Assembly: GCA_047967505.1 (NCBI GenBank)
Contig: CM106538.1
Source: Dipteris shenzhenensis
Lineage: Eukaryota
Direction: 5' to 3' (one strand)
Length of the DNA: 64,000 nucleotides
This document shows positions 6,841 to 56,655 of this stretch, piece by piece (positions within the stretch are counted from its first letter, which is position 1; each line of letters begins with the position of its first letter). Both the position numbers and the translations under genes were made by a program. The notes under the pieces were generated by a model. The model made no database searches. It was not told the DNA's origin and was given only the letters and a program-made list of their open reading frames with translations.

Positions 6841-7210
6841 TGAATCTGTGCCCCCTTCATTAAACCTGCAACCCTAACCGGCTGGAAGGGAACCTCCTAA
6901 AGGATATCATCAGAAGACATATGTAGCCTCCCTCCGATCTAAACATTAAGAACCAGGGCATCCTCATGAGCATCCCACAAAACAATAACCTCTCATTTTA
7001 TAGAAAGAGAGAGAGGGTGGCCTAAATGATAGGCACCTCTCCTACATCAAAGGAGATAACTCCTAAATCAGTGGCACCTCCTCAAGAGGCAACCTTGTAC
7101 TACATCATCACTTGTGTCATGGTCTAGATACCTCATAGCACTAATTCTGCTTCACACAATATCACACACACACACACACACACGCGCACACACACACACA
7201 CACCCACCTA

Positions 7211-22204: not shown

Positions 22205-23352
22205 TCCTGCCTTGAAGAGCATCTCTGCCACCACACCAAACCTCTTGCCAATAACTAAAAGAAGCCAGTGATAAACTGAGGGAAGACCAGGGAACCTGAT
22301 GAAAACAGAAACTCCCTGCTTGTCCTCTTCAACTGGGTCAAATCCCAGTTGAAAAGGAAACAAAAAGATCCTCCTGTAGCCTAGAAGTAGAAACCCGGCC
22401 TGTAGCAGGTCTCTCGTGACATGCGGGGAATCTAGGCACACCTGAAAGAAACCCCGTCCCAACAAACGAACATCCTTGAGGTGGGGGGCGAGGTCCTGAG
22501 GAAGCGTCGACAACATCCAATCTCTAGCTTGTGACTTGGAGGGGTGTGAGCCATGAATGCGTGCGAAGAGAGTCGTGGAACACTCATGTTCGAAATCCTT
22601 TTGCAACTGCTGTAGCTCGTCTTTTGAAAAAGTGACAGTTCTCGCGGCCGGTGTGAGCGGAGACGGATTGACTGAATGGGAACCCATTCGTCAATCGAGG
22701 TGTGTAGGCCGATTCAAACACAAAATAAAAACTCCGTCTGCTTTCCTGAATCCCAGGAGACCCCTATAGGAGAATAGGGGTAATCCAGATGAAGGAGAGG
22801 GTGAAGAAGAAGGGAGAGAGAAGAAAAAAAACCAGGGGGAGACAGCGGGGAGGAGGGAAGAGGAGGGGAGGATAGGGGAGAGGAGTGGAGGATAGGGGGA
22901 GAAGAGGAGTAGAGGAGAGGGGAAGGAGAAGGGAGGAAAAGCAGCAGCACGCTGCAGCGGGGGGAAAGCAGCAGCAGGAGCGGGGGGGGAGCAGCAGGCT
23001 GCAGTGGGGGGGGGAGCAGCAGCAGGGGCGGGGGGGGGAGGAGGCTGCAGCGCAGGGGGGGGACGCTGCAGCGCGGGGGAAGGGGCAGTGCGGGGGAGAG
23101 GGCAGGTAGGAGGGGGCAGCGAGGAGGGAAGGGAGGGGGCAGGCAGGAGGGAGCAGGAGGAGCAGCAGGGAGCGGGGAGAGAGGCAGCAGGGAGCGGGGA
23201 GAGGAGCAGCAGCAGGAGGGAAGGGAGGGGGCAGCGAAGGGGAGCGGGAGGAGCAGCAGGGAGCGGGGGAGCAGCAGTGAGCGGGGAGAGCAGCAGGGAC
23301 CGAGGAGAGCAGCGGTGAGGAGGGGAACTGGAGGAGCGGGGAGCAGCAGCAG
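22205..23352 (-). mobile_element. LINE family A 5' portion (C-rich leader plus ORF1 N-terminus), 3' part lost
   Basis: ORF 22181-22687 (TFSKDELQQL..GSHPSKSQARDWML) matches ORF1 at 35014. The leader resembles 34300-34980. Confidence 0.9.
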
Positions 23353-26345
23353 TTCTAAATTCTTTGGAAGAGCAGCCTTTATCTGTAAAGGCTCTTTGTC
23401 TTGCTCTAGTCTCCCATTTAGCCAGTTTCCTGTGATCATTTAGTTTAAGACAATGTCTAGCCTGGCATAGTGTTGTTTGCTCATGCATGGACAACGAACG
23501 AAGATAGCTGAGTTCAGTGAGGTCTTGACAAGTGAATTTGGCCTGAGCAATGGTTTCCCTCAGAGTCTTCATGTAAGACTTGCCATAAGCTCTAATCACA
23601 ACTTGCATTTTGGAAACAAAAGAATCCCAGGCATCACAATATGAATATGGTTGCGAGAAGACAGAGAATGAGATGCTTCAGTAACCATGGCCTTGAAAGC
23701 AGCCTGTTGCAAATAGCTATTGTTTACGATCAGATGTCACCTTTGTGGCAATCTCTCATTTGACATAGCATGAAAGGATAGCTGCAACCATAGAGGTGCA
23801 TGATCTGAATGCACTAAGGCATAGTCAATCCACATTTTGCATGTAAAATCCCCATTTTGTTGTGGAGCTACACTATACCATCGATCCAGACGTGCCTGAT
23901 AAGAAGAAATGGCATTATGTTGGAAGGTGTATCCAGGTGACAAAGGCTGCAATTCCTTCCAAAGGTCAACCAAATCCAGATGCATCAGTAATTGGGACCA
24001 TGCATGCCTTTCAGGAGTTAACATATGATCATGTCTGGAGGTATTGTCACCCTGTTGTGGAGCATTATTGAAATCCCCACATATGAAGGCATGATATCTC
24101 CATGGATATTGTTGCATGGCATCCCAAATTGCAGTTCTTTCTCTAGAGGATTGAGGTGCATAAATAGAAGCAAATTCAAACACCTCTCCTCGAATAATGC
24201 ATTGAAGAACAAGCCATCTGCCCTTGTTGTCATTTAAAGCAATAACTGGTTGAAGCTCATGTTTGATCAAAAGGACTACCCCTGAGAAAGAGTGCTCCCC
24301 AGCATAGAAAATATCATAACCACAGTAGTGTCCTGTCTTTCTTGCATAGACGTGTTGGTTGTGTTCTTGTAATGCCACTATGTAAGGCTGAAATCTATTG
24401 ATGTACAGCCACACAGATTTCCATTTCCTATTGTCACACAGCCCCTGGACATTGAGTGTAAAACATTTGATATCAGCAGTCATATTTACAGATATTTATA
24501 GTAATATAACAACTATGTACAGCAGCAAAATTCATGATGTCAGCCCTGCATTTCTATCTCAGGGTCAAGGCCTCTCCCCTCAGAAGAAGTAGCCACCTGA
24601 GGAGTAGACAGCAAAGCAGCAACCTCTTCTTCAGGGAAGAGTGTTCTGCTAGCTGTCACTGCAGGCCATGTGATCCCAATTCCTGTATTGACCTCTGGGG
24701 TGTTTCCACTAGAAGACGCACCATTCCAAGTGCGAGGGGGTGGAAGTCTTTGAGCAGAAATAACTTTTCTTGGACTTTGCCATCCATCAGTTGGAGGTTT
24801 GTGTCCTTTTGTCGAGGGTTGAATAGCAGGAGGTGAATGTGAAAAAACATTCCCATTTGAAACCACTAGAGCTTTGCCTTTATCCTGATTTCCAGAAAAC
24901 TATCTACTATCTTTGTTTTTATTTGCAATGGAGGTAGGAGCATCCTTAGTAGGCATTTGAACCGACAAAGTGGCAGGAGGCATTTTATGCTGATTCATTG
25001 GACACTGTGAAGCCATGTGTCCAAATTTTTTGCACTCAAAACAAGCCCCTGCAAATAATCCCCATTTCAGTTTATAAAAAGCACTTCCCATGTCCACATT
25101 ATTCACCGTGACTGAATAAGAGTCCGGTGTGGGATTTTTAGTATCCCAGAGAATGCAAAATCGATTCGAGTTGCCATTAGGCCGTGGTGGGCAGACCACT
25201 TTGCCTAAAGATGCTGCAATTTTAGGCAAGAGTGAGGCCATGCATTGTGAGAAGTCTACAACTTCAACCCAGACCGGGCATCTGTGTCGGATTAAAGCGT
25301 GAAAATCTCTTGTGGGAGACCATGGCAATACATGCACCATTTGCTGCCCAAAATAGAGAGGCGAATGTTCCAAAAGCATTTGTCTGTGTATCTCATCCAC
25401 CGTGATAACCTCAAAAAACCCCCTGGCTGCATAGTGTACTTTGCAAACAAATGAGCCAGCCACTGTGCGAGTCAACCAGTTGCCTATCTTTGTGGCAGGT
25501 GGCATCTGGCCTGGAAAAAATAATATGACTGTAGTTTTAGCATATTCTTTGACTGGATCCACAATTTCATCTACTTCAACCATGAGGCCAACTGAAGGAA
25601 CCAAGTCTTTCCACTCTTTCCTTGTGTCTGCAAATCCTTCATGCATGACATCATAGACCAGTTGGGCCTCAAGAGTATCATGTACCGGGTCATGCTGACC
25701 CTCAGCTTGCTTTTGCTTCTTGCAATGAACCGAACGCTCCTTTTGAAACGTTTTTTCATAGGAATATTTAGCCATAGCTTTGTAAAAAGTGGAACTCAGA
25801 AAGGAGGTACTTGTAAAAGGGTAGTGGAGTAAAAAAACCAGTCCCAAAAAAATGCCCACAGGAAGCCCACAAAGAAGAGAAAAAGAGTATATTTGTAAAG
25901 AGATAGAAGGGAAAGAGGGATGTAGAGGTCGAGAGAAGATAATAACAGTTTTGTAGAGGAAGAAGAGAGAAAAACCAGTAAAAAAACCCAGATGAACTAT
26001 ATTTCAGAGGAAAAAGGAAGATTTTGGCGATGGGAAAGGTGCAGCAGACCCAAAGACTGAAGAGGAGAAAAAACAGGAGCAAAAGCCTTCAAAATCAGCA
26101 CGTGGATGTAGTCCGGAAGCAAAACCCTGCGTGGAAACGATCCAGGAACCGGAGATGGACTGGGAGCAGCAAAACTGTAGCAAGCGGAAATGTCCGTACA
26201 GGCCGTACACCTGTACGGAATCCGTACGGAGCTCGGACGGGCTGTACGGCTGGTGATAAATGCTCCAGATCACTGGTTTTTGGGCTCTGATGCAGCGCAG
26301 CTGGGAGCTGAGGCTCACGGGCTGGTTGCTTGAGGCTCTAGAGCT
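23353..26345 (-). mobile_element. LINE family B 5' portion: leader, ORF1 and APE endonuclease; RT missing
   Basis: ORF1 at 24540-25859 has RGFFEV, VLPWSP and CFECKKFGHMASQCP, with a premature stop at 24900. The EN at 23737-24483 has TLNVQGL, LQEH, IYAP, GDFN, RLDRW and SDHAP. The EN is homologous to 29761-30525. The 5' end abuts CT/CA repeats. Confidence 0.9.
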
Positions 26346-30525: not shown

Positions 30526-30726
30526 CTTACACACACACACACACATATACATATATATAAATATAGATATACAATATACATATACATACACATACAAATA
30601 CACATATACATGTACATGTACATACATTGATGTATGCATGTATGCATGCATGTATGTATGTATGTATGTATGTATGTATGCATGTATGTATATATGTATA
30701 ATGCATATGTAAACTGATGGAGTCTC

Positions 30727-30763
<37 letters not shown>

Positions 30764-31046
30764 TGAGCAAGCGAGGAGAGGTGGATGTAGAGGGTGGAAT
30801 GCAGGGTGGAGCAGGGGGTCCAGAAGGGTTCAGCGAGAGGCTGTATGCCATCTGTACAATGGTGCAAGTACACACACATATATACATATATATAAGTATA
30901 GATATACATATACATACACATACAAATACACATATACATGTACATGTACATACATGTATGCATGCATGCATGCATGTATGTATGTATGTATGTATGTATG
31001 CATGTATGTATATATGTATAATACATATGTAAACTGATGGAGTCTC

Positions 31047-31085
<39 letters not shown>

Positions 31086-31190
31086 TGAGCGAGCGAGGAG
31101 AGGTGGATGTAGAGGGTGGAATGCAGGGTGGAGCAGGGGGTCCAGAAGGGGTCAGCGAGAGGCTGTATGCCATTTGTACAATGGTGCAAG
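30526..31190. repeat. ~320-bp tandem duplication of a TA/CA/TATG/(GA)n microsatellite cassette
   Basis: Units ~30530-30868 and ~30870-31190 share aactgatggagtctcat(ga)n...gtacaatggtgcaagt. Confidence 0.88.
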
Positions 31191-32067
31191 TCTTCACACG
31201 CAGTACAGACAGTGGGGCTGGAAGGGGGTGGGATGGGGCACTGATGAGGCAAGAAGGGGTGGGAAACAGGGATCAATTGTGTCAAAGCAGGGGGGGGGGA
31301 CCTGAGGGCTGAAAGAATGTGAAATGGGCTGAAGGAGGCAGAGGTAGAGGTAGGCTGAAGGGGAGGCAGACTAGGGAAACAGTGAGGGAGAGTTGGGTTG
31401 GAGACAAGGGATGGAAGGAGGGAGGAGCATGTTCAGGAGCTGGGGAGCTCAAGATCCTTCATCAAAACCCAAAATCCCTTTTATAAGACCCTGTTGGGAA
31501 GCTAAATTCGAATTCTAGCTTTAGTAGCTGCATGTCTTAAGAATGCTTAGCAAGATCTTGAATGAAAACAAAGCATGGAACATTTTACGTGCACTTTGCT
31601 CCTGAAGAGAGTAAGCTATCAAACCTAATAGCAGGTTCCATTCATTGTCTGGAGTCCATCTTACCACGCGGCCTAAAACATGTTTGCTCAATGGCTTGAA
31701 TTGGGATTTCCTTATTAGTAGTAGGAGAAAGGGTGGCATGCCATCTGACCATGAAGTCTACGTTCAAGATGAGAGGGCCCACTATGTCAGATTATTTTGA
31801 CTATTCCAATCGGACCATGATTTTGCTACTTCCGACAATCTAGGTGTGCTTAACTTGTAGTCTGAGACTTTAGAAAAGTGTCCAAGGTGTCTTTTGGTTA
31901 TGTGAAAATTTTACTAAACCCTCTTATCGTCGCAGATCTCAATTTATTGAGCGTGTTAATATGGAAAAAAAAATTAAGGTATAAGACTTTTTGCTGGGTC
32001 CACAATGTTTTTGTTATGTGCCCAAAATCTACTTAATGTTTTGGACCATTCACGTGTCTGTATGCAG

Positions 32068-32180
32068 GTTAACCTTGGAATGGTTATAAAGGATAACACT
32101 ACTGAGTTTTCCGTACTGGTAGACCATGCTGTAGGTGGCTCAAGCATTGGAAGTGGACAGTTGGAGCTCATGCTACACAG
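32068..32180 (+). CDS. Alpha-mannosidase (GH38) internal exon, VNLGMVIKDNTTEFSVLVDHAVGGSSIGSGQLELMLH(R)
   Basis: Acceptor tatgcag| and donor |gt. The exon is 113 nt, phase 0-2. It continues directly from NYYP and has the conserved 'SVLVD.A.GGSS...GQ.ELMLHR' motif. Confidence 0.93.
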
Positions 32181-32292
32181 GTCGATTATGCAACATATCC
32201 TATTGTCAATGTATAATAAGTTCAAATCGCAGGAACTTGGGTTTGCCCCTGTACAATATGGACATCAAAAGATTCATGTATATATGTAACAG

Positions 32293-32377
32293 GCGTTTGC
32301 TGAACGATGATGGGAGGGGAGTGGGTGAAGCTTTGGATGAGGCTGTTTGTTTGGGCAGTAACTGCGAAGGCTTGACT
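32293..32377 (+). CDS. Alpha-mannosidase (GH38) internal exon, (R)RLLNDDGRGVGEALDEAVCLGSNCEGLT
   Basis: Acceptor taacag| and donor |gtaaga. The exon is 85 nt, phase 2-0. It follows a 112-bp intron and has the conserved 'RRLL.DD.RGVGE.L.E' motif. Confidence 0.93.
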
Positions 32378-33029
32378 GTAAGACACTTTTGATACTGTCT
32401 TAAAAAATATTTACTTGAAAATCAGTGGGAAAGAAAGTCAAGATGTCTACATATATGTACTTAAACGATCGTGTGCTGTAGTAGGCCAGATTCACAAACC
32501 GAGACCACCTGCATTATTCCTTGAAGGATGGGTTCGCAGCTTTTGGTCTCCCAAGGTCTAGTAGTCACGACCATCCGTTTCTTAGAAATGGTTGTATTGT
32601 GTTCATTTTTGAAAAGTGTGAGATGGTTACAGAAGTGGTCCACAAAGGAACCTGGACGATTAGGAATCAACCACTATCAGCTCAGCTGTGTGAACCTTCT
32701 TTTAGTCCATACTGTCCTCCTCCGTCCAAAGCCCCTATCTGGGTGAGTTCCCTGACCTTCCGCTTTTTCTTTTTCCTTAAATTGAGACCCTTTGTTCTCC
32801 GCTGGGCCAATTCCTTGGAGTAGAAACAGAGAAGTTTATCAACCCGAGAGGCAACCCCCAAGCTTGTGTCCTGATGTAATTCAAAAGGACATCTCTTGTG
32901 CCCCTGGCCTTGTCCTTTTTTTTTTTTTTTTTTCATGAAAAAGACTTCTATTAAGTAAGAACAAAAACCCGCGAGAGCAAGCTCAAAGCGGAATACATCA
33001 TGAAATCATGAGGATAATAAAAAACCCCC

Positions 33030-34208
33030 TCAGAGTGAGGTGGAAAGAAACCAAGGCTGAGGCTGAAAGTGCCATCTCAACCCTGTAGTAGATTCAGAGA
33101 AGAAAGGAGAATCCTTCCATTCCCTGAAGAAAGAAGCCCTCCTAGCTGAGGCTGCACGGGAGTCCCCCTGCATACCCGTCCATACGGCCATCAGAGTGTG
33201 TACGATGTCTGTCCAGATACTAGCCAATGTGTGCGAGGGATGAACCTGAGTACCCTCCATAGCCTCTGTGCATCTGGATCTCCAGATATGCCAGGCTGCT
33301 ATGCTCGCTATAATCTCCCAAGAAGTATCCACAGAGGCATGTACAGCTGTAAAAGGACGGTGTGGAACCACATCCAACGAGCAGAGCTCAACCCGATGAT
33401 GTCGAACCGAAATGGCCCGGGAGGAGTCAAGTCCCTCATAGAAAACCTGAGGTCCTGTAAGAGAAAGCCAAGCCACCGAGCCCCAAGTCATAAAGAGTGG
33501 GGAATGGGCAAAGTGACTGAAGATCCTAGCTATCCCCATCCAAATCAATCTCGCCTGTCTGCAATCCCATAAGCAATGCTGAATAGACTCCGAAGTAGAA
33601 AGGCAACGAGGGCAAGTAGGGTCGGCTCCGAATCTGGACCTCCAAAGGTTCACTGCAATCCCTCCATGAATAGAAAGCCAAAAGAAGATAGTGATCTTTC
33701 TATTCCTGTGGGATTTCCAGAGCCTCCTCCAGAAGTACCTCTGCTGATCCGCAATAATACCAAAAGTCTCCCAATGAGGAACTCTGGAGGGTCTCCAGCC
33801 TCTACTACTGAGCTGAAATCTCCTGGCATTACTGACCGTGTAACGAAAGAAGGGGATGGTCTTCTCTCGATGCCCCGCGTCAATCCACTCCCACTCTCCG
33901 GGGTCCCACTGTAAATACTTGATGGGAACTCCTCCATAGAGCCAAAGTCTCCAAGACCCGGTGGAGAGTAACTGGGGGTCAGGGTCTAAGAACCACTCTG
34001 AATCTGATCCCTGCATCAAAAGGCCTACGACCCTGATAGGCTGAAAAGCAGACTCAAGCAATATATCATCTGTAGATCTGAGCAATCTGCCACCATCCTG
34101 GACACTGAAAACCAAAGCATCCTCTTGTGCACCTCGGAAGGCTAAGACCTGAAGTGGAACCCCGCCTCTCGAGAAAGTACCTGCCCAAGTGGAGGTAGTG
34201 AGAGGCAT
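33030..34208 (-). CDS. LINE A ORF2 C-terminal part (zf-RVT)
   Basis: Open 392-aa frame with FWRRLW..IFFWL, CPRCLSTSESIQHCLWDC and WHIWRSRC. It ends just before the 3' UTR and poly(A). Confidence 0.88.
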   Translation of the reverse strand: MPLTTSTWAGTFSRGGVPLQVLAFRGAQEDALVFSVQDGGRLLRSTDDILLESAFQPIRVVGLLMQGSDSEWFLDPDPQLLSTGSWRLWLYGGVPIKYLQWDPGEWEWIDAGHREKTIPFFRYTVSNARRFQLSSRGWRPSRVPHWETFGIIADQQRYFWRRLWKSHRNRKITIFFWLSIHGGIAVNLWRSRFGADPTCPRCLSTSESIQHCLWDCRQARLIWMGIARIFSHFAHSPLFMTWGSVAWLSLTGPQVFYEGLDSSRAISVRHHRVELCSLDVVPHRPFTAVHASVDTSWEIIASIAAWHIWRSRCTEAMEGTQVHPSHTLASIWTDIVHTLMAVWTGMQGDSRAASARRASFFREWKDSPFFSESTTGLRWHFQPQPWFLSTSL

Positions 34209-34299
34209 ATCATCTGTGTCGCCCCACCACTTGCACGTTGTTCACCAGAGGGGGAGTCAAGGACGTGACATTGAAACTGCACAGTGGCACTTTGAGCCT

Positions 34300-34960
34300 G
34301 AGCTGCTGCTCCTCCCCGTTCCCCTGCTGCTCCCCCTCCCTCAGCCCGTCTCTCTCCCCCCTCAGCCTGTCCCTAGCCCCTCCCTGCTGCTCCCCCCCCT
34401 CCCCCCCTGCTGCTCCGCCCCCTCCCCCTGCCTGTCCCTCGCTCCCTCCCTCTGTTCCCTGCTTCCGCCCCCTCCCCCCTGCTGTCCCGCCCCCTCTCCC
34501 TGCCTCCGTCCCCTCCCCCCTGCTGCTCCGCCCCCTCTCCCTGCCTCCGCCCCTCCCCCCTGCTGCTCCCCCCTGCCCCCTGCTGTCCCGCTCCCTCTCC
34601 CTGCCCCCGTCCCCTCCCCCCTGCTGCTCCGCCCCCTCTCCCTGCCTCCGCCCCCTCCCCCCTACTGCTCCCCCTCTCCCCCTGCCTCCGCCCCTTCCCC
34701 CCTGCTGCTCTGCTCCCTGCCTCCGCCCCCTCCCCCTTGCTGTCCCGCCCCCTCCCTTGCTGTCCCGCCCCCTCCCTGCTTGCTCTCCCGCCCCCTCTCT
34801 TCCTCTCACTCCTCCCTTTCTTCTCCTCTCCTTTCCCCTCCCTCCCTCTCAGCTTGCCCCTCTCCCCTCTCAGCCCCAGCCCCTCTCCTCCTTCCCTCCC
34901 CTTCCCCCCTGCTTCCTCCTAGCCTCCTTTCCCCTCCCTTGCCCCTCGCAGCTTTTTTGG
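34300..34960 (+). repeat. C-rich degenerate tandem repeat (CCCCCTGCTGCT-like) forming the LINE A leader
   Basis: Almost devoid of A. A homologous tract lies at 22770-23350 on the opposite strand. Confidence 0.9.
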
Positions 34961-35013
34961 AACGGAAGGAGCTTTTTTTTCTCTTCGAGTCGGCCTCCTC
35001 ACCTTGATTGGCG

Positions 35014-36651
35014 ATGGATTCCCCGTCAGCCAATCCTACTCCATCTCCACCGGCCGCGAAAACTATCACTTTCTCTAAAGACGAGTTGCAGCAGCTCAAG
35101 AAGGATGTAGAGATTGAGTGCTCTACCACTTTGCTAGCACGCATCTTCGGGTCTCACCCTTCCAGATCCCAAGCCAGAGACTGGATGCTTGCGGCTCTCC
35201 CCCCAGACCTCGCTCCTCGATTGGTAGATGTTCACCTTCTGGGACGAGGTTTTTTCCAGGTTGTTTTTGACACTCCAGAGGCTGCGAGCACTATGCTCAA
35301 GGCCGAGTTTTTACACCTGGGACACAGGAAGATCTTCTTTGAAGCCTTTCACCTTGGTTTCGACCCAGTTGAGGCAGATAAGAAATTCTTCTCGCTCTTC
35401 ATCAGGTTCCCCGGGCTTCCCCAGGTTTACCATCGACTTCTTTCTGTTATTGGGGAGCATTTTGGCGCAGTTGCTGAGATCCCACCCCTCCCTGGGTTGC
35501 CATTGACTGCAGCAGAGGCAACCAAGGCTGATGGGGTTCCTAGAGTTAGGGTCCTTTGCAAGGATCCTAACCTCGAGATGGACCACGTCATGATACAGCG
35601 CCCGGATGGTTCCTTTTTTCGCCAAAGAGTGGAGATTTCAGGCAGGCAGGACCAGTGCAGGATTTGCAGGACCTCGAGACACTTTGCCAGGGATTGTCCC
35701 AGGAAGAAGAAAAGGCCTAAGAAGGCCTCTGGTACAGCTACCGCCTCAGGGCATCGACAGGGGGGACAGGGGGGGGGATTAGACCCGGCACTTGCCCCTC
35801 GACCTCGGCAGAGGGGTGGTACAGGTCCAGCTCCTGCTCCTCATTCTTCACGTGGCGGTCCTGCTCAGTCAGGTGGTGGTACAGGTCCAGTACCTATTCC
35901 TCGGCCTCATCAGGGGGGTGGTACAGGTCCTGCTCCTCGACCCCCACCTCCCTCAGGCACACACGACGCTTTACAGTGGGTTCCAGTACGTGTGCAGGTC
36001 CCTCCTTCAGTTCACGAGGGTACCTTAGTAGACTCTGCTTCACCTCGAGCTGTCCTTCCTGTCTCACCTTGCACAGTCCGAGACGCTGAAGCTTCGACCT
36101 CCTCCCCAGTTGCAGCTTCTTCCTTAGATCCAGCACTGCCAGATGTTCCTCTTGAGGATGGAGAGATTTCCGCGGCTGGGCAGACACCGGGTAGAGAGCC
36201 TTCCTCACTCCCTCCCTTGGACAGGGGGAAGGGGATAGCTTACACTGTTGATCCTCTTCCCTCACAAGGGATCCTTCGTACTCCGGTGTCTGGATTGCTC
36301 CACAGGAACTCGTTTTCAGCCTTGGCAGAGAGTTCAGATTTCCCAGAGGAGGAGTTTGTGCCCGCTACTTTTGGGGAGCCAGTGGTTGGATTTCCTATTG
36401 ACAGGGCTTCTTCTTCAGGTGCCAGGATTCTTTCCCCTATTGACTTTCTCCACTGGGTTCCTTCCCTCCTTCCAGGAGGTCTTTCCCTGTTGAGGGGTTT
36501 GTTTCCGCCACTAGGTCGGGTAAGGTGTTCCACTCTACATCCTCCCGTCGATGAGGATTATCAGTTGGAGCCTAGGTGGCGTCCCACATCGCCGCCGCAG
36601 ACAGCTGATCCGGGATCAGCTTCATCCAGGTGTTACTGGGGGTCCCATTGA
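35014..36651 (+). CDS. LINE A ORF1 (DUF4283-like plus CCHC knuckle, Pro/Gly-rich tail)
   Basis: LGRGFFQV, FIRFPGLP and CRICRTSRHFARDCP motifs. It overlaps the ORF2 start by ~100 nt, so the true stop may have been altered. Confidence 0.88.
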   Translation: MDSPSANPTPSPPAAKTITFSKDELQQLKKDVEIECSTTLLARIFGSHPSRSQARDWMLAALPPDLAPRLVDVHLLGRGFFQVVFDTPEAASTMLKAEFLHLGHRKIFFEAFHLGFDPVEADKKFFSLFIRFPGLPQVYHRLLSVIGEHFGAVAEIPPLPGLPLTAAEATKADGVPRVRVLCKDPNLEMDHVMIQRPDGSFFRQRVEISGRQDQCRICRTSRHFARDCPRKKKRPKKASGTATASGHRQGGQGGGLDPALAPRPRQRGGTGPAPAPHSSRGGPAQSGGGTGPVPIPRPHQGGGTGPAPRPPPPSGTHDALQWVPVRVQVPPSVHEGTLVDSASPRAVLPVSPCTVRDAEASTSSPVAASSLDPALPDVPLEDGEISAAGQTPGREPSSLPPLDRGKGIAYTVDPLPSQGILRTPVSGLLHRNSFSALAESSDFPEEEFVPATFGEPVVGFPIDRASSSGARILSPIDFLHWVPSLLPGGLSLLRGLFPPLGRVRCSTLHPPVDEDYQLEPRWRPTSPPQTADPGSASSRCYWGSH

Positions 36652-39600
36652 TATATTATTTATTCAAGAGCACAAGCTGGATTATAGAGATTGTGCCAAG
36701 TCAGGCAAGTTACTTTCAGGACATACTTTTTGGTCGCCTGCATTGGGCACTAGGGGAGGCACTTCTATTTCAGTTTCGCAGTCGGTTCTCCCCTTAGTTG
36801 TTGGGCACGGAGTCATTATCCCCTCTAGAGCTCAGTGGATTATTCTCTTGAATGGAGGGCGTAAGGTTGGCTTCCTCAACCTATATGCCTCCAACATTAG
36901 AGGGGAACATGTCCTTATGTGGAAGACTTTGCTCTCCTGGGCCCCCATTGTGGATTCTTGGGTGATTGGAGGTGACTTTAACATGGTCGAGTTACCTTCA
37001 GACAAAAAAGGGGGTAGAGAAGGCGGACTTCACTCTTTGGAGAGAGCAGCTTGGGATGCCTTCCTTTTCCATTTCTGTGGCAGAGATACTTGGTGTGATG
37101 ATGCCTTTCTTATTCAGCCACAGTCCCTCCTGTTCTCTTGGTCGAACAGGAGGCAACAGATGCCTATTCATGCACGCATTGACAGATTTTATGTAGATGA
37201 CTGGGCACTAGACAGAGGTGGATCGGTATGCATTGCTGCGGGGGTTTCCACCTCAGACCATTTTCCTGTTGTTCTGGCTATCTCAGAGCCTCACTTGAGA
37301 GGCCGATCTGCCAGCATCAGGATCCCAGATGCCTTTTACACAGAGGAGGACCTTACAGAGGCAGCCCTACGGGTATGGTTTGCTCATGTCCAGGGAGGGC
37401 AGCCACATCCTTCACATTTAGCCGCTGCCCTCTCTGGTATTAGCGACTTTTACTGCTCAGTTGCTTCTACCAGGAGACGAGATATTCTCAGACGTGAGAT
37501 TGGTGTTCGCCAGCAGTTAGCAGCTTTGCAAAGGGAAGAGCAGAAACGGCCTTCAGATGCTTGGATTCAGGAGCGCCTTGCTGCAGCGAGGGCTCATCTG
37601 CAGTTATTGCTTGATCAGAGAGCAGAGTATGCCTTTCATGCACGGGAGTCCTTCTGGATTCAGATGGGTGGTAGAGTCAATAAACACTTCTTCTCTACTC
37701 TTGGCCCTAGACATAGTAGAGAGAGTGTATCTCAGCTTATTGACTCACATGGGGTTTTACAGACAGAGCCAGATGACGTCTTACGCATAGCTTCAGATTT
37801 CTATGCCACCCTCCTTACTGCTGATCCTGAGACACACGATATAGAGGATGCTAGACAGGCTATTTGGCAGAGTATCCCAGTGTTGGTGAATCCGGATATG
37901 CATGTTCTACTTGACGCACCTTTCACCAACACAGAGTTCAGGACTGCACTTTCAGCCCTTCACAAGGGCAAGTGCCCAGGTTTAGATGGCCTCACCCCGT
38001 CTTTTTTCATTGCATTTTGGGATATGATTGGAGACTATATTACTTCAGCCATGCAGGCCATTTGGGACTCTGGCGAGATGCCTGAATCGCTTACAGAGGG
38101 CCTCATCCACCTTATCCCAAAAGGAGGTAGCAGAAATTTATTGTCCCAGTGGAGGCCTATCACACTTCTGGGGACTTGTTACAAGATTCTGGCCAAGGCT
38201 ATCAGCCTCCGATTGCAGCCACTTCTCCCTGATCTTATCCACGACACTCAGACGGGATTTGTGCATGGCAGAAGTATTTTTTATAACATTTTTTCTTTCT
38301 GGGAAGCTTCAGAGTGGGCCATGCAGAGTGGCCAAAATCTTGCCATTCTACTGTTGGATTTTGAAAAAGCTTATGACAGAGTAGATTGGAGTTTTTTGGA
38401 GGGCACCCTTCTACGCTTTGGATTCACTGATGTTTGGATCAGAGGTGTTTCCTCTTTGTACAGATCAGCCCATAGCCAGGTACTTATTGGTGGGGTAAGG
38501 GGTGAGAGATTTCAGATTTCGAGATCAGTCCGTCAGGGATGCCCCCTTGCTCCTTTCCTTTTTTTATTCGTGGCCGAAGCTATGAGCATCTATGTTAGAT
38601 CTCAAGATGACATCTTTGGGCTGAGACTTCCTATCAGAAGAGAAGAGGAGCTGCTTGACAGTGAGTTGGCTGATGACACAGCGATTTATTTGGATGCCTC
38701 TCCACAGACATTGACTTCTTTCAGGACAACATTGGATTTATTTTGCTTGGCGGCAGGGGCGCAGATAAATTGGCATAAATCCAATGGCTTTTGGATCAGT
38801 GATGAGGACACTCCAGTTTGGGGACTTGACATAGGGTTCACTTGGGTTCAGAGGGGTGTGCCTATCAGGTATTTGGGCTGCCAGGTCGGCTTGGGTATTT
38901 CTACCACGCAGCAGTTTGCTCCCGTGTTGGAGAGCATCAGAAGGAAGCTTCTCTTTTGGAGCTCAGCCAAGCTGGATCTTGCCTCTAGAGTTGTGGTGGT
39001 CAACCAGGTCCTCTTGGCCACGGCCTGGTTTATTTGTTCATGTTGGTGCCGTTCTAGGGACTGCATCATTCAGCTCAGAAGACCGATCAGGAACTTTCTC
39101 TGGAGTGGGCTTGATGGCACAGCAGATGCCTTAGCCAGAGTGGCTTGGGAGACCCTCATCCTCCCTACACAGGATGGGGGTCTCAATATTATTGATCCAG
39201 ATTTACAGTGCAGAGCCTTACTTTGCAAGATAGTGGTGCGAGGACTTATGCCAGGACAAGAACCGTGGAAGGACTTTCTTATCAGCAGCATACAGAGGTG
39301 CACACCTTCCTCAGGAGGAGACTGGATGAGCAGTGTTAGATGGATTTTCACCTCAGCACACCTCAGATCACCTTCTTCCCCTCTCATGGTTGCCATTCTG
39401 AAAGCTTGGGCTAGTTTCAGAAGCTCTCTTCGGAGGATTCCTCCTTCCTCCCGGGAAGAGATTGATAGGCAGCCCATCATGTGGAATGACAGTATTTTAG
39501 ATGATCGTGGCAGACCACTGGGTGCCTCACTCTACATGCAGTGGGCCAGGTGGGAGAGGGGACCTGCTTCTTCTTTGGGATCTTGGAAAGCCTTCCGTAG

Positions 39601-39668
39601 GCTTCCAGAGGAAACCAAGTCAAGGTTGACAGGACATCTCAGAGGGAGTGCAGGGAGGATCTTGCAGA
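36551..39668 (+). CDS. LINE A ORF2 (APE endonuclease plus RT), broken at the inversion breakpoint
   Basis: Motifs IQEHK, GGDFN, RIDRF, SDHFP, CPGLDG, WRPITL, DFEKAYDRV, RQGCPLAP, LADD and YLG. The frame runs on into flanking DNA to 39721. Confidence 0.93.
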
Positions 39669-40778
39669 CTGGCCTGTCCTTTGAGTATGGCAGAAGACAA
39701 TCTTGTTTTGGTTGTAGTTGAGGCTACATTCCATTAGTTGTAGATTAGGAGTGGCCATCAAGTGCCTCAATCCCCGCTAGAGTCTTATCTCAGTTCCAGC
39801 GGTGGATAAGATCAGCGATAGTTATCATGTAAATCTTCAGACTCCCGGGTCTCTATTCGAGCAGTTCCTTTCTCAGAGGTACAGGGGCTCAGGGCATCCG
39901 GATAGGCCGGCTTCAGGGCGGATCACTCGACTTACGATCACATTTTTACACTTAGAGGGATCATTGAGGAGGCCAGACACAGGAGACAGAGAGTATATTG
40001 TTGCTTTGTGGATTTCCGCAAGGCATTTGACACCGTTCCCCGCGCCCAACTCATCAAACGCCTATAGGAGTTAGGCTACGACTCGGTGATTATCTGGGCA
40101 GTAGTAGCTCTCTATGAGCGGGTGACGGGGCAGGTCAGGATTGGCACCAGCTGGAACCCAGAGATCACGAGCACTATCGGAGTCAAACAAGGATGTCCCT
40201 TGTCACCGACTCTATTTGGCCTCTACATCGACGAGCTCGAGACCACCATCAGGACACTCGGAGGTGCAGGCTGCTCTCTTGCGGAGGCTGTTATCCAGAT
40301 TCTCCTTTACGCAGACGATGTAGTACTACTATCCTCTTCTGCTACTGGTCTTCAGTGACACCTAGATGGACTTCAGGTCTTCTGTGATACACATGACTTG
40401 AAGGTCAACCTTGGGAAAACCAAGGTGATGATCTTCAACACTTCCAGACCCGCTATGCATCGAGAGCAGTTCCTCTTCGCCGGTGACCCTGTTGAGATAG
40501 TTGACTCTTACACATACTTGGGCGTTGTCTTCTTAGGCCCGATCTTCACGATGCGCTCGGCGATGCAGGTCAAGATCAATCGGGGATACGCCGCTCTTGC
40601 CAGGCTGGAGCGACAGTGCTACCACTCCCATTGCCAGGACCTGCGGACCAAGTCTCTCCTTTTTGATTCTTTGGTCCGCCCAGCAGGCATGTACGGTAGC
40701 CCTTGGTGGGGAGTCGACCTTTCAGACATAGAGTGGGCTCGAGTCGAGCGCCTACAGATACTAATGTTTGCTCGGATG

Positions 40779-40982
40779 TGTTGGGGTAAAGGCACATTGC
40801 CACCCCTTTTATTAAAGATATGACACCTATGACTGTCTTAAGACAGTCATAGGGTGAAAAACCTAATCCTAATAAAACTTAAGAGTTTGTGGTGTGGCTC
40901 ATCACTTCACACCCGCATCTTGAGTGTCACTCTCTCTCTCACCCTCTCTCTGTTGTTCTTCTCCCTCTGACCTTCCCCTTCA
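40779..40982 (+). repeat. Copia 5' LTR
   Basis: Direct repeat of 46827-47030, followed by the PBS. Confidence 0.96.
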
Positions 40983-42604
40983 ACTGGTATCAGAGCCTCA
41001 CTTCCTCCCTACCCCTGCCTACCTCTCCCTCTACCCCCTCGGGACTTGTGCCCTTTTGGCATTGCGCAAGCAACTAGGGCTGCAGCACGGGACAGCAACG
41101 CGGGGCGGCGAGGTTGTATCGCGGGCAATAGCGCGGGCTGCAGCGGATCTGCGAGCAGGGCAAGGCGGCGCCGAACAGCAACAGCAGCTGCTAGCTGCTA
41201 CAGCTGCGAGCAGGGCAAGGCGGTGCGCACGTACGCGCAAGAAGCGTGGGCGCTGCGCGCAGGCAGCAGCTTGTGATCACGCCATTTCCGTACAGTCGTG
41301 TACGGACGTACGGTCGTCCGTACAACTGTACGGACAGCAGTCGACCGTACCGTACGGATCTCCGTACGGACTGAGGCAAGGGCTGCGTTAGGAATTTCTG
41401 CGTCAGGGAGCTTCATCAGAGATTTGCATTTCGAAAATTTCTTTTTTTTTCTCTTCTTGGATCTGTACCCTGCACAGGTACATCAGGTACTTTGGTACCC
41501 TGCACTAGTACAAAGGTACAGAAAGTACAGCAGGTACATTTTTTTTTGGGAAGAGGAAAGGAGAGAGAGCACTCTGCTCTTCATTCAGGATCATTTTCAG
41601 TTCTCAAAACTGTGTTTTGAAAGTACAGCAAGTACCTTCGTGTCCCTCGTGCTTGAGGTGACTAGTACCACAGTGTGTGGTTGATTGCACAGTTATCTTG
41701 TTTCGGGAAGGTAATGCCTTGATTTTGCAGAGGATTTTTATGCTTTTGCTGAGTGCAAATCTCAGCTTTTGGGTGACATTTTCAAAGGGCTTTTGCCTGG
41801 AAGCTTATGCAGTGTATGCCTTGAGGCAGTGTGGAGCCAGGGAGCCCACATTAGTCTTGTTTCCGCAGTGTACTCAGTGACATTTCTTGCAGGTCACATT
41901 TTGTGTACGACACCTTTTGAAAATCTCAGTTGAGCCACGCTTGGCCAGGGCGCATCGAGTTTACTCGGTCCCTAACTGTCCATCGTTGACAGTGCTCAAA
42001 AGATTTTCTCTTTAGTGTCTGTACGTTGGGATCTGTGTTGTTATTGTGTACACAGGGCTGTTTATGCATTGCATTGTCAGGTGAGTGCCAGGAGAGCGCT
42101 ACATTTTGTATGCTACCTCAGTGTTGAGGTGTTCTTTCACTTGGTACAGGTGTCAAATCAAGGGGCTTTTGCCCAGACTTTGCTTGATAGCACTTGGGTT
42201 ACTGTCAGAGACCTTCAGATGCCTTTTATCCCCTTGGCAGAAGGGTGATTGCTTGGGATTTGTCCCATTTTGCGTTGCAGGTTTGTGACAGGCTGAAGAG
42301 TCTGGAGCTTCTTTTTCAGTGAACAAAACAGTGTATGACAAGTGGTTTATGCATATAAAATCAGTGCAATACCTCATCTAAGGTGGGAGAAGTGATCAGG
42401 ACAGCAGTGTTTTGTGCACGGTACAGTGTGTCAGAAGGTACAGTAACTGGAGGGAATTTTCTGTTTTACTGCAGATTTTTTGACAGTAAAAACAGCACTA
42501 TTGTGAGTGCTCCTGGCTCTTGATAGAGCAGGTTTTTCTGAGAAATCAGAATTTTATTCAGTCTTTTTTGACTTACAGGGAGTCAGGTACTTTCCTTATC
42601 TGAT

Positions 42605-45600
42605 ATGGCATCAGAGGGAAGTGAATCATCAATTCTGAACATAAAGAAGTTGGAAGGGGCACACAATTATGCATTATGGGCAGAACAGTGTTTGAATGTA
42701 CTTCTGCTTAAGAAGATTTGTAAGCCCATAAGGGTGAAGGGTGTCAAGCCATCTGGGATGTCAGATGATGAGTGGGAGGAGCTAGATCTGTCCGCGAGGG
42801 CTGCTATCATGCTTACTCTCAGTGATTCTCTTGTGTACAATGTTCAGGCTGAAAAGACCTCTTATGGTGTATGGCAGAGGCTAGCAAAGTTGTATGCCCA
42901 AAAGAGTTCAGCTAGTAAGGTGTATTGGTTGAAGAAGCTGGTTGATCTTCGCATGAAGGAAGGTAATGAAGGAAGGTACAGCTATGACCTCACACTTGAG
43001 TGAGTTCAATGCCATCTTTACACAGCTGATTGCACAGGGGTTGAACCTTGATGAGGAGTTCAAGGCTACTTTCTTGTTGTGTACCTTTCCTGAGAGTTGG
43101 GACACTTTCAAGACCACCTTGTCTAATTCGAACGTCACTCTTATATATGCTGATGTAGAGAGCTCTCTCCTCATGGAGGAGATGAGCAGGAAAAATAATG
43201 CGGGCAGCAAGTCTTCAAATGCTTTGCAGGTACAGGATAGAGGCAGGACTCAGCAGAAGGGGAGATTTGCTAGTAAGTCCAAATCCCGCAGTCAGTCCCG
43301 TGGCAAAAAGGATATTGAATGCTTTTATTGTGGCAAGAAGGGACATGTGAAGTCTAAGTGCTTCAAGTTTATACGGGATCAGAAAGCCAAGAAGGCTGAA
43401 GCAAAGGATGCAGGCAGTGGAAGCAAAGGCAAAGGCAAGGCCAAGGTAGATGACTTGGATGCAGTGAATGTTGCAGCAGAGGACAGTGACAGTGACAGAC
43501 ATGAGGTATTATGTTCTTCTGCTGTAATTGCACACACATTGGTTATTGATGGCCATGACATGCACATCTGGCTCTTGGATTCAGGTGCTTCTTTTCATGT
43601 TACTCCTCATAAGGAGTGGTTTACTTCTTACACAGGTACTCATGGAGTTGTTCACCTTGGGAACAACTATGCATGTCAGATTGCAGGGATTGGCAGTATA
43701 CAGATAGTATTCCCTGATGGACGGTCATTTATGCTTGATGGTGTTCGCCATGTGCCGCAAATCAAGAAAAATCTGATTAGCACTGGCTTGTTGGATGACA
43801 GTGATTACCACACCACATTTGGGGATTCCAAATGGGTGATTACTGATGGCCAGGTTGTAGTGGCTGAGGGTTATAAGAGTGATACCTTGTACCCTCTTTA
43901 TGTTTCCAGTGTAGGTAATCATGTTGTTGCCATAACCGAGCTGCCAAAGATTTCATTGTGGCATAGCCGGTTGGGACACATGTCCGTTAAAGGAATGCAA
44001 GAACTATCACGTTTGGGTTATCTGCCGTCTCTTTCTTTTTCAGATTTGCCTACTTGTGATCATTGCATATTTGGCAAGCATTCTGTGACTCCTCATAAGA
44101 GGAGAACTCCCCAGAATAGAGCACCGCTTGATCTAGTGCACACTGATTTGTGTGAGATGCCACAGTTATCACTAGGGGGTGCAAAGTATTTTATTACTTT
44201 TATTGATGATGCCACACGTAAAGTGTGGGTCTATTTCTTGAAGCATAAAAGCGATGCCTTAGATGCTTTCAAGAAGTTTGTCGCTCAGGTTGAGAATCGG
44301 ACAGGTCGCAGGCTGAAATGCCTTAGATCCGATAATGGGGTGAGTATGTGTCACATGCTTTTGTGCAGTTTTGCGAAGCTAAGGGCATCAAACAGGAACT
44401 CACAGCCCCTCATAATGCATCTCAAAATTGTGTAAGTGAGCGGATGAATCAAACTATTCAGGAGAAGGTTCGATGTATGTTGTCTTATGCTGCATTGCCC
44501 CATGGCTTTTGGGCAGAAGCCGTGCAAACAGCAGTTCACATTATTAACAGGTCGCCAAACAAGGCTTTGGAGTTGAAAGTGCCAGAGGAGGTGTGGTCTG
44601 GCAAGCCACCCTCATATAAGCACTTGCGTGTGTTTGGCTGCGAGTGCTTTGCTCATATACGCAAAGAACTGCGCACCAAACTGGAGCCAAAGTCTCTCAG
44701 ATGCATCTTCATGGGTTATGGTGACGAAGGTGAAATGGGGTACAGGTTATGGGATCCCGTTAAACGGAAGATTATATGCAGCAATGATGTCATCTTTAAA
44801 GAGGATAGTGTACACAAGGAACCCGTGCAACCTGTGGAATACAGGAGGGTTATTTACGATGATGTTGGACAGCAAAGAATGCCCATTTATATGCAGCAGC
44901 AGGCTGCTGCAGATAGCCCTGTTCAAGAGGGTATACAGGCTGGAAATCAGCCAGATAATTTTGCCAATGATGCACCACTGGATATGCCAGCAGATGGGGC
45001 TGTAGAACAGCCAGATATGGTGGTACAGCCACCCGTCATGCATGACGAACAGGCTGGACAGCAGCCTAATCCGGAACATTTTGTTAGGAGGAGCACCCGT
45101 GTACAACGGCCTCCTGCCAGGTTTGTTCCAGGAGCCAATAATGTGGCTGATTTTATCATGCTGACAGATTGTGGTGAGCCTTCCAGCTTCAAGGAAGCTA
45201 TGGGAAGAACAGAGAAAAGGAAGTGGGAGAAAGCCATGCAATCTGAAATGGACTCCCTACTTCAAAATGATACATGGGACTTGGTGCAGCTACCTGCAGG
45301 CAGAAAGGTTTTGCCATGCAAGTGGGTTTACAAAGTCAAAGTGGATTCAAATGCTTTAGCGAGGTATAAGGCGAGATTGGTTGCCAAGGGATTTAAGCAG
45401 GAGAAGGGCATTGACTTTGATGAGATCTTTTCCCCTGTAGTCAAGATGACTACTTTGAGAGCAGTGTTAGCTCTTGTTGCTCATGAGGACATGGATTTAT
45501 GTCAGATGGATGTGAAGACTGCTTTTCTTCACGGAGATCTCCATGATGAGATCTATATGAGTCAGCCAGAGGGATATGCTGTTAAAGGGAAAGAGCAGCT

Positions 45601-46727
45601 TGTGTGTAAGCTCAAGAGGAGCTTGTATGGACTCAAGCAGGCGCCAAGAGAATGGTACAAGAAGTTTGATGCCTTCATGCAGTCCCAAGGGTATCATAGG
45701 TGTGAGACTGATCATTGTTTGTACACCAAACGGGCAAAGGATGGCAGTTTGATGCTACTCATTCTATATGTGGATGACATGCTGATTGCCAGTAAATCTC
45801 AGCATGAGATTAGTGCTTTAAAGAAACAACTGCATAAGTCTTTTGACATGAAAGACTTGGGTGATGCAAACCATATTCTTGGCATGCGGATTACTCGTGA
45901 CAGGTCCAAGGGACTTTTGTTTCTGTCGCAGAAGGAGTACATTGACAAAGTACTGCAGAGGTTTAAAATGGAGGGGGGGAAGTCTATTAGTACCCCGTTG
46001 CCTCCACATTTAAAACTCAGCAGTAAGGACAGCCCCAGATCAGATGATGATAAGGCTGAAATGGCCAAGGTTCCGTATGCATCTGCAGTTGGTTCTTTGA
46101 TGTATGCCATGGTTGCCACTCGTCCGGATATTGCTTTTGCGGTGGGAGTCATCAGCAGGTATATGGCAAATCCAGGCAAGCGGCACTGGGAAGCAGTGAA
46201 AGGTGTCTTGAGGTATCTCAAGGGTACCAAAGACTTGTGCATATGCTATGGTAGGCAGGATGCATTGGTGCATGGTTTTACAGATTCAGACTATGCAGGG
46301 AATGCAGATAACCGGAAATCTACTACCGGTTATATTTTCACATTTGCAGGAGGTGCTATATCATGGGTGTCTCGGTTGCAGAAATGCGTTGCACTGTCAA
46401 CTACTGAAGCTGAATATGTTGCAGCCACTGAGGCTTGCAAGGAAGCAATATGGCTTACTCGGCTGGTGGGAGATTTGGGCATTACAGGAGATATGCCAAT
46501 TTTGCATTGTGATAGTCAGAGTGCTATCATGTTGGCAAAGAATCCGGTCTTTCATCAAAAGACCAAGCACATAGATGTGAAATATCATTTCATCAGGGAG
46601 GTACTGGAAGACAAGCGACTTGAGCTTGTGAAAGTGCATACTGATGACAATCCTGCAGATTTGCTCACTAAGAGCTTGCCTACAGAGCGGGTTTGCACAT
46701 TGCCGCCACATCATGGGATTAGGATGA
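42605..46727 (+). pseudogene. Copia gag-pol polyprotein with three frameshifts
   Basis: Motifs CFYCGKKGHVKSKC, WLLDSGASFH, WHSRLGH, LRSDNG, YVDDML and TDSDYAG. Frameshifts at 42953-42978 (13-bp duplication), ~44340 (-1 G) and ~46690 (+1 G). Confidence 0.92.
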
Positions 46728-46826
46728 GACCACTCTTATTTTATGGTCTTGTATACAGTAACTGTATATTGCTGTAATTTTTATTCTTTTCTCCCCTTTA
46801 GGCATATTGGCCTTTAGGTGGGAGGT

Positions 46827-47030
46827 TGTTGGGGTAAAGGCACATTGCCACCCCTTTTATTAAAGATATGACACCTATGACTGTCTTAAGACAGTCATAG
46901 GGTGAAAAACCTAATCCTAATAAAACTTAAGAGTTTGTGGTGTGGCTCATCACTTCACACCCGCATCTTGAGTGTCACTCTCTCTCTCACCCTCTCTCTG
47001 TTGTTCTTCTCCCTCTGACCTTCCCCTTCA
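46827..47030 (+). repeat. Copia 3' LTR
   Basis: Direct repeat of 40779-40982, preceded by the PPT. Confidence 0.96.
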
Positions 47031-54558: not shown

Positions 54559-56655
54559 TTATTCCTCTTCTCACCTTCCTTGAGTGTGGGGATTCTTCGC
54601 ACTCCAGTGTCAAACCTGGTTCATAGGAACTCTTTTTTCATCCTGGGAGATATGGCGGAGATTGTGTTGCCTCTGCAGTTGAGGATGTTGTTATTGGATT
54701 TCCTATCAACAGAGCATCTCCTTTTGCAGGTGTGGGGAGTCTTTCTCTCATGGATTTTCCTTCCCTTGGCAACCTTGGGAGGAGAACTTCTACTCCAGAT
54801 ATTTGTTTCCACCACTAAGTCGGGTAAGGTGTTCCATCCGACTTTCTTCCACCTATGAGAATTGCCAATTGGAACATACAGGGCCTTGATGGTGTGCCAC
54901 ATCGCTGCTGTTGTAGGCAACTGATTCATAATCAACTTCATCCAGGTGTTAATGGGGGTCCATTAAATTTTTTTCTATTCAGGAACACAAATTGGATGCC
55001 AAAGATTGTGCCAAGTCAAGGAAGATGCTTTCTAGTTACACGTTTTAGTCCCCTGCAGTTGGCACTAGGGGAGGTACATGCATTTTAGTTTCGAACTCTC
55101 TTCTCCCCTTGGTTGTTGGACATGGATTCATCATCCCCTCTAGAGGTCAATGAATCCTTCTTTTGATTGGGGGACGTAAGGTAAACTTCCTCAACCTTTA
55201 CGCCCCTAATAATAGAGGGGATCATGTCCTTATGTGGAAGGAGCTTCTCTCTTGGGCCCCCAATCCAGATTCATGGGTTATTAGAGGTGAATTCTACATG
55301 GTGGAGTTGCCCTCCGACAAGAAAGGGGGTAAAGAGGGTGGCATTCACTTCTCAAAGAGAGCAGCCTTCTCGAATGGCTTCCGATTTTGGTTCAGTGGTA
55401 GAGATGCACGGTTTAATGATGCCTTTCACACTCAGCCACAATCACTCTTGTTTTCATGGTTGAACAGGAGGCTAGAGATGCCTATCTATGCACAGATTGG
55501 TAGATTTTATGTTGATGACTGGGCTCTAGGTAGAGGTGGGTCAGTATGCATTTCTACTGGGATATCCACTTCAGATCACTTTCCCATGGTATTGATGATT
55601 TCGGGGCCTTTTGAGAGGATGCTCTGCTAGTATCAAGATTCCAGATTCCTTTAATGGAGAGGAGGACCTCACAGTGGTAGCCTTGTAGGTTTTGATTTCT
55701 CGAATGGAGGGTGGAGTGCCGTCCCCTTTACATGTGACTGCAGCCCCAAGTGGTGTTAGTGATTTTTATCATTTGGTTGCTAGCACTAGGAGACATGACA
55801 TTCTCAGACATGAGATTGGTACTCACTAGCAACTGGCAGCCTTGCTAAGGTATGAGCGGAAAGTATGAGCGGAAATGGCCTACGGATGCTTAGATTCAGG
55901 AGCGCCTTGCTGTAGCAAGTGCTCATCAACAGATATTGCAGCTTGGTATATTTGGAGGGGCAGATGTACGGAGGCGATGGAGGGTTTACAGGTTCACCCT
56001 TCCCAGTCTATGGCCAGTATATGGACTGATACTATACACACGTTGATGGCCATCTGGGCGAGCATGTAGGGTTCCTCCAGAGCAGCTAGAGCCAGGAGAG
56101 ATATTTTTCAAAGTTTGGAGAGGATCTCTGTTCTTCTTTGAGTTTTCTTCAGGGTTGCGGTGGCATTTTCAAGCTCCACCTTGGAATTTTGTTAGCTCTT
56201 TTTAAGCTGTTTTTTCTTTCATGCATGTCATGATGTACTTCTACATTTGAGCTTGCTCTTGTAGATTTCATTCATACTTAATGAAGTAAATCTTTTTGCA
56301 AAAAAAAAAAAGTAGATGCTAACACACAAGCCAAAGATGATGCTAGATATGCTATATTGCAATGTATTTCTATGTTGGTGAAACTGGATATGCGGGTCTC
56401 ACTTGATGCACCTTTCACCAACATAGAGTTTAGAATTGATGTTCTTGCTCTCTATAGGGACAATTGCTCGCGTTCAGATGGGCTTACTCCCTTCTCCTTT
56501 ATTACTTTTTGAGATAATATTAAGGATCACATTACCTTAGCCCTACAAGGCGTTTGGGACTTTGGTGAGATGTCGGACTCACTTATAGGTGGTCTCATTC
56601 ATCTTATTCCAAAAGGGAGTAGCGAAAAATTAGTGTCTCAGTGGAGGTCTCCATA
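54559..56655 (+). mobile_element. Degenerate LINE family A copy (ORF1 end, EN, start of RT region)
   Basis: MRIANWNIQGL, FLNLYAPN, STSDHFP and LIHLIPKG...WR are colinear with 36260-38160. Confidence 0.87.
55935..56311 (+). mobile_element. 5'-truncated LINE A 3' end with poly(A), embedded in the older LINE A copy
   Basis: IAAWYIWRGRCTEAMEG motif and an A-run at ~56300-56311. The older element resumes afterwards. Confidence 0.8.

Follow-up and report, generated by a model that had tools for sequence, protein, structure and literature searches.

Twin priming, a model that Ostertag and Kazazian reportedly introduced in 2001 for human and mouse L1, is well known in mammals and apparently hardly described in plants; no plant case was among the titles found in the full-text literature, most subscription journals lying outside its coverage. 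The locus described here belongs to a 64,000-nt stretch of contig CM106538.1 of the fern Dipteris shenzhenensis (GenBank assembly GCA_047967505.1), referred to below as the window. Positions 32904-39682 of the window consist of two back-to-back, oppositely oriented pieces of one L1-type long interspersed nuclear element (LINE), the first 5.4 kb of the L1 copy being flipped relative to its last 1.3 kb. The best explanation for this arrangement, which we hold with high confidence, is one retrotransposition event in which a young fern-type L1 integrated by twin priming.

Passages of a preprint on human insertions (bioRxiv 10.1101/2024.08.27.596794) describe the product of twin priming as a flank, an inverted 5' part, the 3' part, poly(A) and a flank, frequently with a small internal deletion or duplication, and give 5' deletion as typical of human 5' inversions. 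According to excerpts of PMC12016303, the two complementary DNAs (cDNAs) of human insertions lie within 20 bp of each other in 132 of 287 cases, and inverted cDNAs in the human germline have a median length of 751 bp. In the relevant excerpts of PMC2912911, microhomology at the 5' junction of human 5'-inverted L1 copies is absent in only 28 of 605, and their target-site duplications (TSDs) have lengths like those of full-length L1, with a peak at 14-16 bp. The frequency of 5' inversion in human L1 is put at 18-30% of insertions in passages of papers that include these two (PMC12016303, PMC2912911).

The fern locus shares with mammalian twin-primed L1 copies the order of flank, TSD, inverted upstream part, downstream part, poly(A), TSD and flank, and in both the 3'-most base of the inverted part (here 39668, in codon 1040 of the second open reading frame, ORF2) abuts the 5' TSD. 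Further points of likeness are that the two cDNAs meet within 0 to ~29 nt, that the TSD is 15 nt long and that the cut site is T-rich. Unlike the mammalian copies, this one has a plant host and is a plant-type L1 with a zf-RVT C-terminus, its inverted cDNA measures 5448 nt and keeps the leader and ORF1, and its 5' junction is without microhomology. The locus is like other plant and fern L1 LINEs in its order of endonuclease (EN), reverse transcriptase (RT) and zf-RVT, in its poly(A), in the length of its ORF2 (~1435-1445 aa here versus 1439-1458 aa in relatives) and probably also in its ORF1, which has a CCHC knuckle and a candidate DUF4283-like region. By its apurinic/apyrimidinic (APE) endonuclease, RT, zf-RVT, poly(A) and TSD, the element is classed as a plant-type member of the L1 clade; for the nucleic-acid-binding module expected of ORF1, the DUF4283-like region and the knuckle are candidates.

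A reading of the locus made from its sequence only (hereafter the sequence-only reading) had taken the two pieces for complementary halves of one element, and protein and profile alignments agree, with at most ~8-10 codons missing between them. Aligned by blastp to the relative P0001 (1448 aa), the + strand ORF covers residues 1-1059 and the - strand ORF residues 1070-1442; the corresponding ranges are 2-1029 and 1044-1428 for P0004, and 1-965 and 980-1359 for P0005. Among the relatives of at least 1350 aa aligned in this way, all 28 matched the + strand ORF and 26 of the 28 matched the - strand ORF. In a profile of 13 relatives, the + half reaches position 1044 with 5 residues over and the - half begins at position 1065 with 7 residues ahead of the match, leaving ~8 positions uncovered between the halves and no overlap. 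The domains are divided in the same way: EN and RT belong to the + strand ORF, whereas a zf-RVT occurs in the - strand ORF alone. A weak inverted similarity between 34120-34143 and 39589-39612 (71% of 24 nt) was considered as a possible sign that the halves overlap; it was rejected because the profile coordinates are without overlap.

Six public sequencing runs were found, none with half of the sampled words, and four of them (X1-X4) were aligned to the region. In two of these four runs, X1 and X2, one contig each joins 34220 to 39668 on opposite strands, the shorter side of the joint comprising 152 letters in X1 and 56 letters in X2. This joint is the form expected of an uninverted family member. 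The X1 contig differs from the window at no fewer than 10 sites in those 152 letters, so it represents a paralogue and not this locus. In a third contig, of 302 letters from X3, 15 letters differ from the window over 39400-39668, and the 33 letters beyond are unlike it. The end of the + part is placed at 39668 by three runs, and the end of the - part at 34220 by two. Together with the ~8 uncovered profile positions, the 34220-39668 joint makes the two breakpoints neighbours, with a gap of 0 to ~29 nt, as the sequence-only reading had anticipated.

Contigs of X3 also resemble the two halves to a similar degree. On the 3' half (32988-33291) the difference amounts to 2 other letters and 1 gap in 303, and on the 5' half (39255-39466) to 3 other letters in 212; from these near-identical matches we take the halves to be of similar, young age. 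Within the window, L1 fragments were sought by blastn, by tblastn and with the proteins of relatives, and those found (1129-2193, 2275-2787, 2961-3412, 6426-6992, 22221-23355, 54802-56650 and others) include none that crosses 39668/34220. Scans of metagenomes with a 24-nt and a 23-nt pattern, taken from either side of the junction, gave 0 matches each.

A further line of evidence is the TSD. The left copy, CTGGCCTTGTCCTTT (32904-32918), and the right copy, CTGGCCTGTCCTTT (39669-39682), align with 14 matches and one 1-nt indel, and one copy stands directly before the T-run whereas the other stands directly after the end of family homology. The duplication was thus rightly described beforehand as near-perfect with one indel: 14 of 15 positions match, and the copies abut the tail and position 39668 without a gap. 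When random pairs of 40-mers drawn from the window were compared, a score this high was reached by 1 of 3000 if they were anchored at these ends and by 62 of 19939 if they were not; the window is rich in simple repeats. An ungapped repeat search, a method that allows no gaps, did not pair the two copies. A single TSD pair brackets both of the oppositely oriented parts, with the poly(A) adjoining the left copy; a repeat of the left TSD is present in the sequence to the right of 39668 and absent from that to the right of 34220.

Read from left to right, the composite begins with the left TSD copy, whose last three Ts run into the T-run. That run comprises 18 Ts on the + strand (32916-32933); with three of them assigned to the target repeat, a poly(A) tail of ~15 A is left on the - strand (32919-32933). 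Both features were read from the sequence. On the same strand follow a 3' untranslated region (UTR) of 96 nt (32934-33029), lying between the tail and the ORF stop at 33030-33032, and the C-terminal 396 codons of ORF2 with their stop (33030-34220), delimited by zf-RVT, blastp and the contig ends at 34220. With the 3' end of another copy in the window (2275-2787), the 3' UTR shares 87% identity (blastn). The - strand frame runs from stop to stop over 33030-34241 (403 codons), with an in-frame stop at 34242-34244, and its zf-RVT domain (~33540-33746) scores 34.2 bits in Pfam, for which the cut-offs are 27.5 bits for zf-RVT, 24.5 for Exo_endo_phos, 29.6 for RVT_1 and 27.2 for DUF4283. A - strand 3' part with poly(A), previously given as 32916-34215, is therefore present; its boundary, by contrast, lies at 34220 and not at 34215.

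The inversion junction, 34220/34221, is defined by the contig joint of 34220 and 39668 on opposite strands. To its right, on the + strand, lie a 79-nt segment without detectable relative (34221-34299), the leader or 5' UTR (34300-35013) and ORF1 (35014-36651; 545 codons from its ATG, open). The open frame of ORF1 spans 35008-36651 (547 codons) with the ATG at 35014; it contains the DUF4283-like region, which at 24.5 bits falls under the Pfam cut-off, and a CX2CX4HX4C knuckle at 35656, located by pattern search. Codons 1-1039 of ORF2 and one further base occupy 36551-39668 on the + strand, as placed by Pfam, blastp and the end of contig homology. The frame is open over 36524-39721 (1065 codons) from before its ATG at 36551, and it carries on for 17 codons into the flank up to a stop at 39719-39721. 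In it, Exo_endo_phos was found at residues 28-246 (~36605-37261; 27.8 bits) and RVT_1 at residues 531-787 (~38114-38884; 91.4 bits), and the Pfam search found no zf-RVT. The ~1040 ORF2 codons attributed to this strand were counted correctly, there being 1039 from the ATG to the breakpoint, without zf-RVT. The right TSD copy, read from the sequence and by gapped alignment to the left copy, closes the element at 39669-39682. All three frames are open, at 547, 1065 and 403 codons.

The nearest full-length ORF2 proteins are P0001, P0004 and P0005, the best identity in the database being 47-56%, and among named relatives, hypothetical proteins from the fern Adiantum nelumboides come closest. Closer copies, of up to ~99%, were found only as contigs of the public runs. 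When the - strand ORF was compared with the protein database among candidates of 221-706 aa, none matched at E <= 1e-20, so closer family members are absent from that protein collection.

Counted from 34221 to 35013, the whole leader has 793 nt. It is ~68% identical to a second copy of leader and ORF1 at 23355-22221, the only other leader in the window. The leader carries CT-rich tandem repeats of ~41 nt at 34457-34799 (8.5 copies; Tandem Repeats Finder), and the second leader copy (22221-23355; 68% identical) has repeats of the same kind, an arrangement that resembles a monomer-like 5' UTR architecture. Homology to the second copy starts at 34300. The region upstream of that copy, compared with 34221-34299, gave a score that 396 of 1000 shuffles reached, and the same 79 nt had no match in Rfam at E <= 1. 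This segment may be either the true 5' terminus of the leader or extra nucleotides. The claim that a complete ~5.4-kb 5' segment was kept accordingly stands for the full ORF1 and the 793-nt leader, with the reservation that the first 79 nt are without relative. Farther downstream in the leader, two X1 contigs diverge upstream of 34984-34987, and we read them as probable members of an abundant part of the family that has another leader.

The geometry, the 14/15 TSD, the complementary halves and the adjacency of the breakpoints are directly seen, and they support what the sequence-only reading had proposed, a single insertion by twin priming in a plant LINE; we infer the order of events from the established model. 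The endonuclease of the element would have nicked the + strand at 5'-CCTTT/GAGT-3', and the T-rich end of the nick would have annealed to the poly(A) and primed a first cDNA, which by the geometry would now be the + strand of 32919-34220 (1302 nt). A cut in the - strand 15 nt away would have freed a 3' end, ...GGCCAG-3', and from this end a second cDNA would have been primed internally on that RNA, at codon 1040 of ORF2, 1.3 kb short of the 3' terminus. In the sequence, ...GGCCAG-3' does run straight on into antisense ORF2 from 39668 downwards, as expected if the second target end primed within the RNA. The second cDNA would have extended across ORF1 and the leader, 5448 nt in all, and ended at or close to the 5' terminus of the RNA; it would now form the - strand of 39668-34221, the first having stopped at the internal primer or ~29 nt short of it. 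Joining of the two cDNA ends at 34220/34221 and filling of the gaps would produce the 15-nt duplication. The target before duplication would hold a single CTGGCC(T)TGTCCTTT.

With ORF2 split between two strands, this copy could not have acted as an autonomous element from the moment it inserted; its leader, ORF1 and EN-RT part are still open. Two other family copies in the window end in 15 and 12 A, and the one with 15 A (2275-2787) has an imperfect flanking repeat of ~10-13 nt.

Several observations weigh against this explanation. The TSD carries one indel. At the 5' junction (39668/39669), neither continuation found in other copies shares a single nucleotide of microhomology with the target: they follow 39668 with G (X1/X2) or with T (the X3 loose end), where the target has C. 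The junction between flank and tail and the 39668/39669 junction are covered in none of the four runs. Given the 79 nt without relative, the exact 5' terminus of the inverted part is putative. Finally, the X1/X2 joint is in conflict with the reading frame and the X3 loose end over the inversion junction itself. The joint is shown with its two sides abutting; since 39668 and 34220 each fall on the first position of a codon, a direct join would be 1 nt out of frame. Beyond 39668 the X3 loose end reads IEAALPEVWV in the + frame, like the IETAIPAEW of relatives at the same place. A loss of 29 nt would keep the register and suit the ~8 uncovered profile positions, and the 30th letter of the X3 loose end, a G that equals the first base of the - part, likewise suits a 29-nt loss. 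From 0 to ~29 nt of ORF2 may be absent at the junction, and we lean towards a small internal deletion of ~29 nt; the listing of the opposite-strand joint may simply omit letters between the pieces. A loss of 0 or of ~29 nt is in either case within the range described for twin priming. The read-through TGLSFEY after 39668 was also examined as possible kin of the relatives' TAIPAEW and was set aside as chance, the X3 contig losing all similarity at 39668.

How much was lost bears on a different history, in which a canonical full-length L1 inserted on the - strand and exactly its 5' 5.4 kb was later inverted in the chromosome. The resulting structure would be formally identical if the junction loses nothing, as the X1/X2 joint is shown. 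One breakpoint of such an inversion, however, would have to coincide exactly with the border between the 5' TSD and the element's first base, a chance of about one in several thousand positions, and the TSD would have to stay outside, in direct orientation. The breakpoints are moreover without inverted repeats, the nearest pair being 24 nt long, 71% complementary and 56-100 nt off, and the ~29-nt loss suggested by the frames and the X3 contig would be left unexplained by a plain inversion. We regard a later inversion as very improbable.

It is equally hard to believe that the arrangement is an assembly error in which a 5.4-kb block was flipped inside a canonical full-length insertion. In favour of an error is the lack of cover of the flank junctions in all four runs. 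The flank zones 32462-33023 and 39683 onwards have little or no cover in any of the four, nothing among the reads of X4 aligned to the region, and no contig in these runs skips the whole element. Against it, the window contains no N, there is no repeat at the block ends to mislead an assembler, and the block ends match both the boundary of element and TSD and the three-run homology breakpoint to the base.

A variant of twin priming, involving a template switch or a second L1 RNA, would account for the 79 nt at 34221-34299, which are without relative in the second leader copy, and such variants are described for human tumours in passages of the preprint cited above (bioRxiv 10.1101/2024.08.27.596794). 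Over 34285-34303, 17 of 19 bases agree with the sense strand close to where ORF2 ends (33056-33074); the score, 28, exceeds the 95th percentile (23) of 200 shuffles and stays below their maximum (30). The 19-nt similarity, however, is confined to those bases and close to what chance gives, Rfam showed no family in the 79 nt, and the near-exact meeting of the cDNAs is simplest with one RNA template; we consider the variant highly unlikely. Less credible than any of these is a pair of events, namely a 5'-truncated 1.3-kb - strand L1 next to or in an older + strand L1 lacking its 3' end, since, although nesting of transposable elements is common in the window (for example the L1 pieces at 54802-56650 and 6426-6992), the piece breakpoints are neighbours in the uninverted element, the left TSD is repeated beyond 39668 and not beyond 34220, and a + strand L1 without 3' end and tail could not insert alone.

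If twin priming on a single RNA did shape this copy, as we favour, a wider proposal may be made, which we advance tentatively and with slightly more doubt than conviction. Twin priming could be a property of target-primed reverse transcription in the L1 clade, at work also in ferns, and not a quirk confined to mammals. In ferns, a cDNA primed internally and without detectable microhomology could then extend over 5.4 kb as far as the RNA's 5' terminus and thereby yield a full-length split element with its promoter, ORF1 and EN-RT intact and pointing outwards. Resolved to the base, the locus is a clean case of twin priming in a non-mammalian host, and it suggests that second-strand cleavage followed by internal priming belongs to the outcomes of L1-type integration in general. 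The length of the inverted cDNA implies that the internally primed reaction can match the canonical one in processivity. For annotators of large fern genomes, it is a reason to merge back-to-back L1 pieces as one event and not to count them as two. A single locus is an anecdote of modest interest, and the value would lie in a genome-wide census.

The left flank of the element contains exons like those of a GH38 alpha-mannosidase (31978-32379, + strand; Glyco_hydro_38C, 33.5 bits). An X3 contig over these exons skips 32177-32288, a stretch with GT..AG ends, and past 32379 continues in letters absent from 31900-40300. This spliced-looking contig indicates that the L1 probably lies in an intron of an expressed gene, and the X3 run may be RNA. 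Just left of the GH38-like exons is a direct repeat of ~300 nt (30574-30877 and 30902-31199; 94% identity).

To the right of the L1, a long terminal repeat (LTR) retrotransposon occupies 40779-47030, with identical 204-nt LTRs (40779-40982 and 46827-47030) that begin with TG and end with CA, and with GGATG on both sides. After its first LTR stands TGGTATCAGAGC, which we take to be the tRNA-Met-type primer-binding site of copia-like elements. The element seems to have inserted very recently, into an RT fragment of greater age (39909-40824).

Two further arrangements of L1 pieces were seen in the window. At 6426-6992, C-terminal pieces lie adjacent in opposite orientation, one on the + strand (6426-6827) and one on the - strand (6992-6849); this order is unfit for twin priming because the inverted piece lies downstream, and the pieces are probably two events. 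A related L1 copy at 54802-56650 (~74% identity) contains a nested insertion: a second copy, ending in 12 A, interrupts it with its 3' end at 55935-56311.

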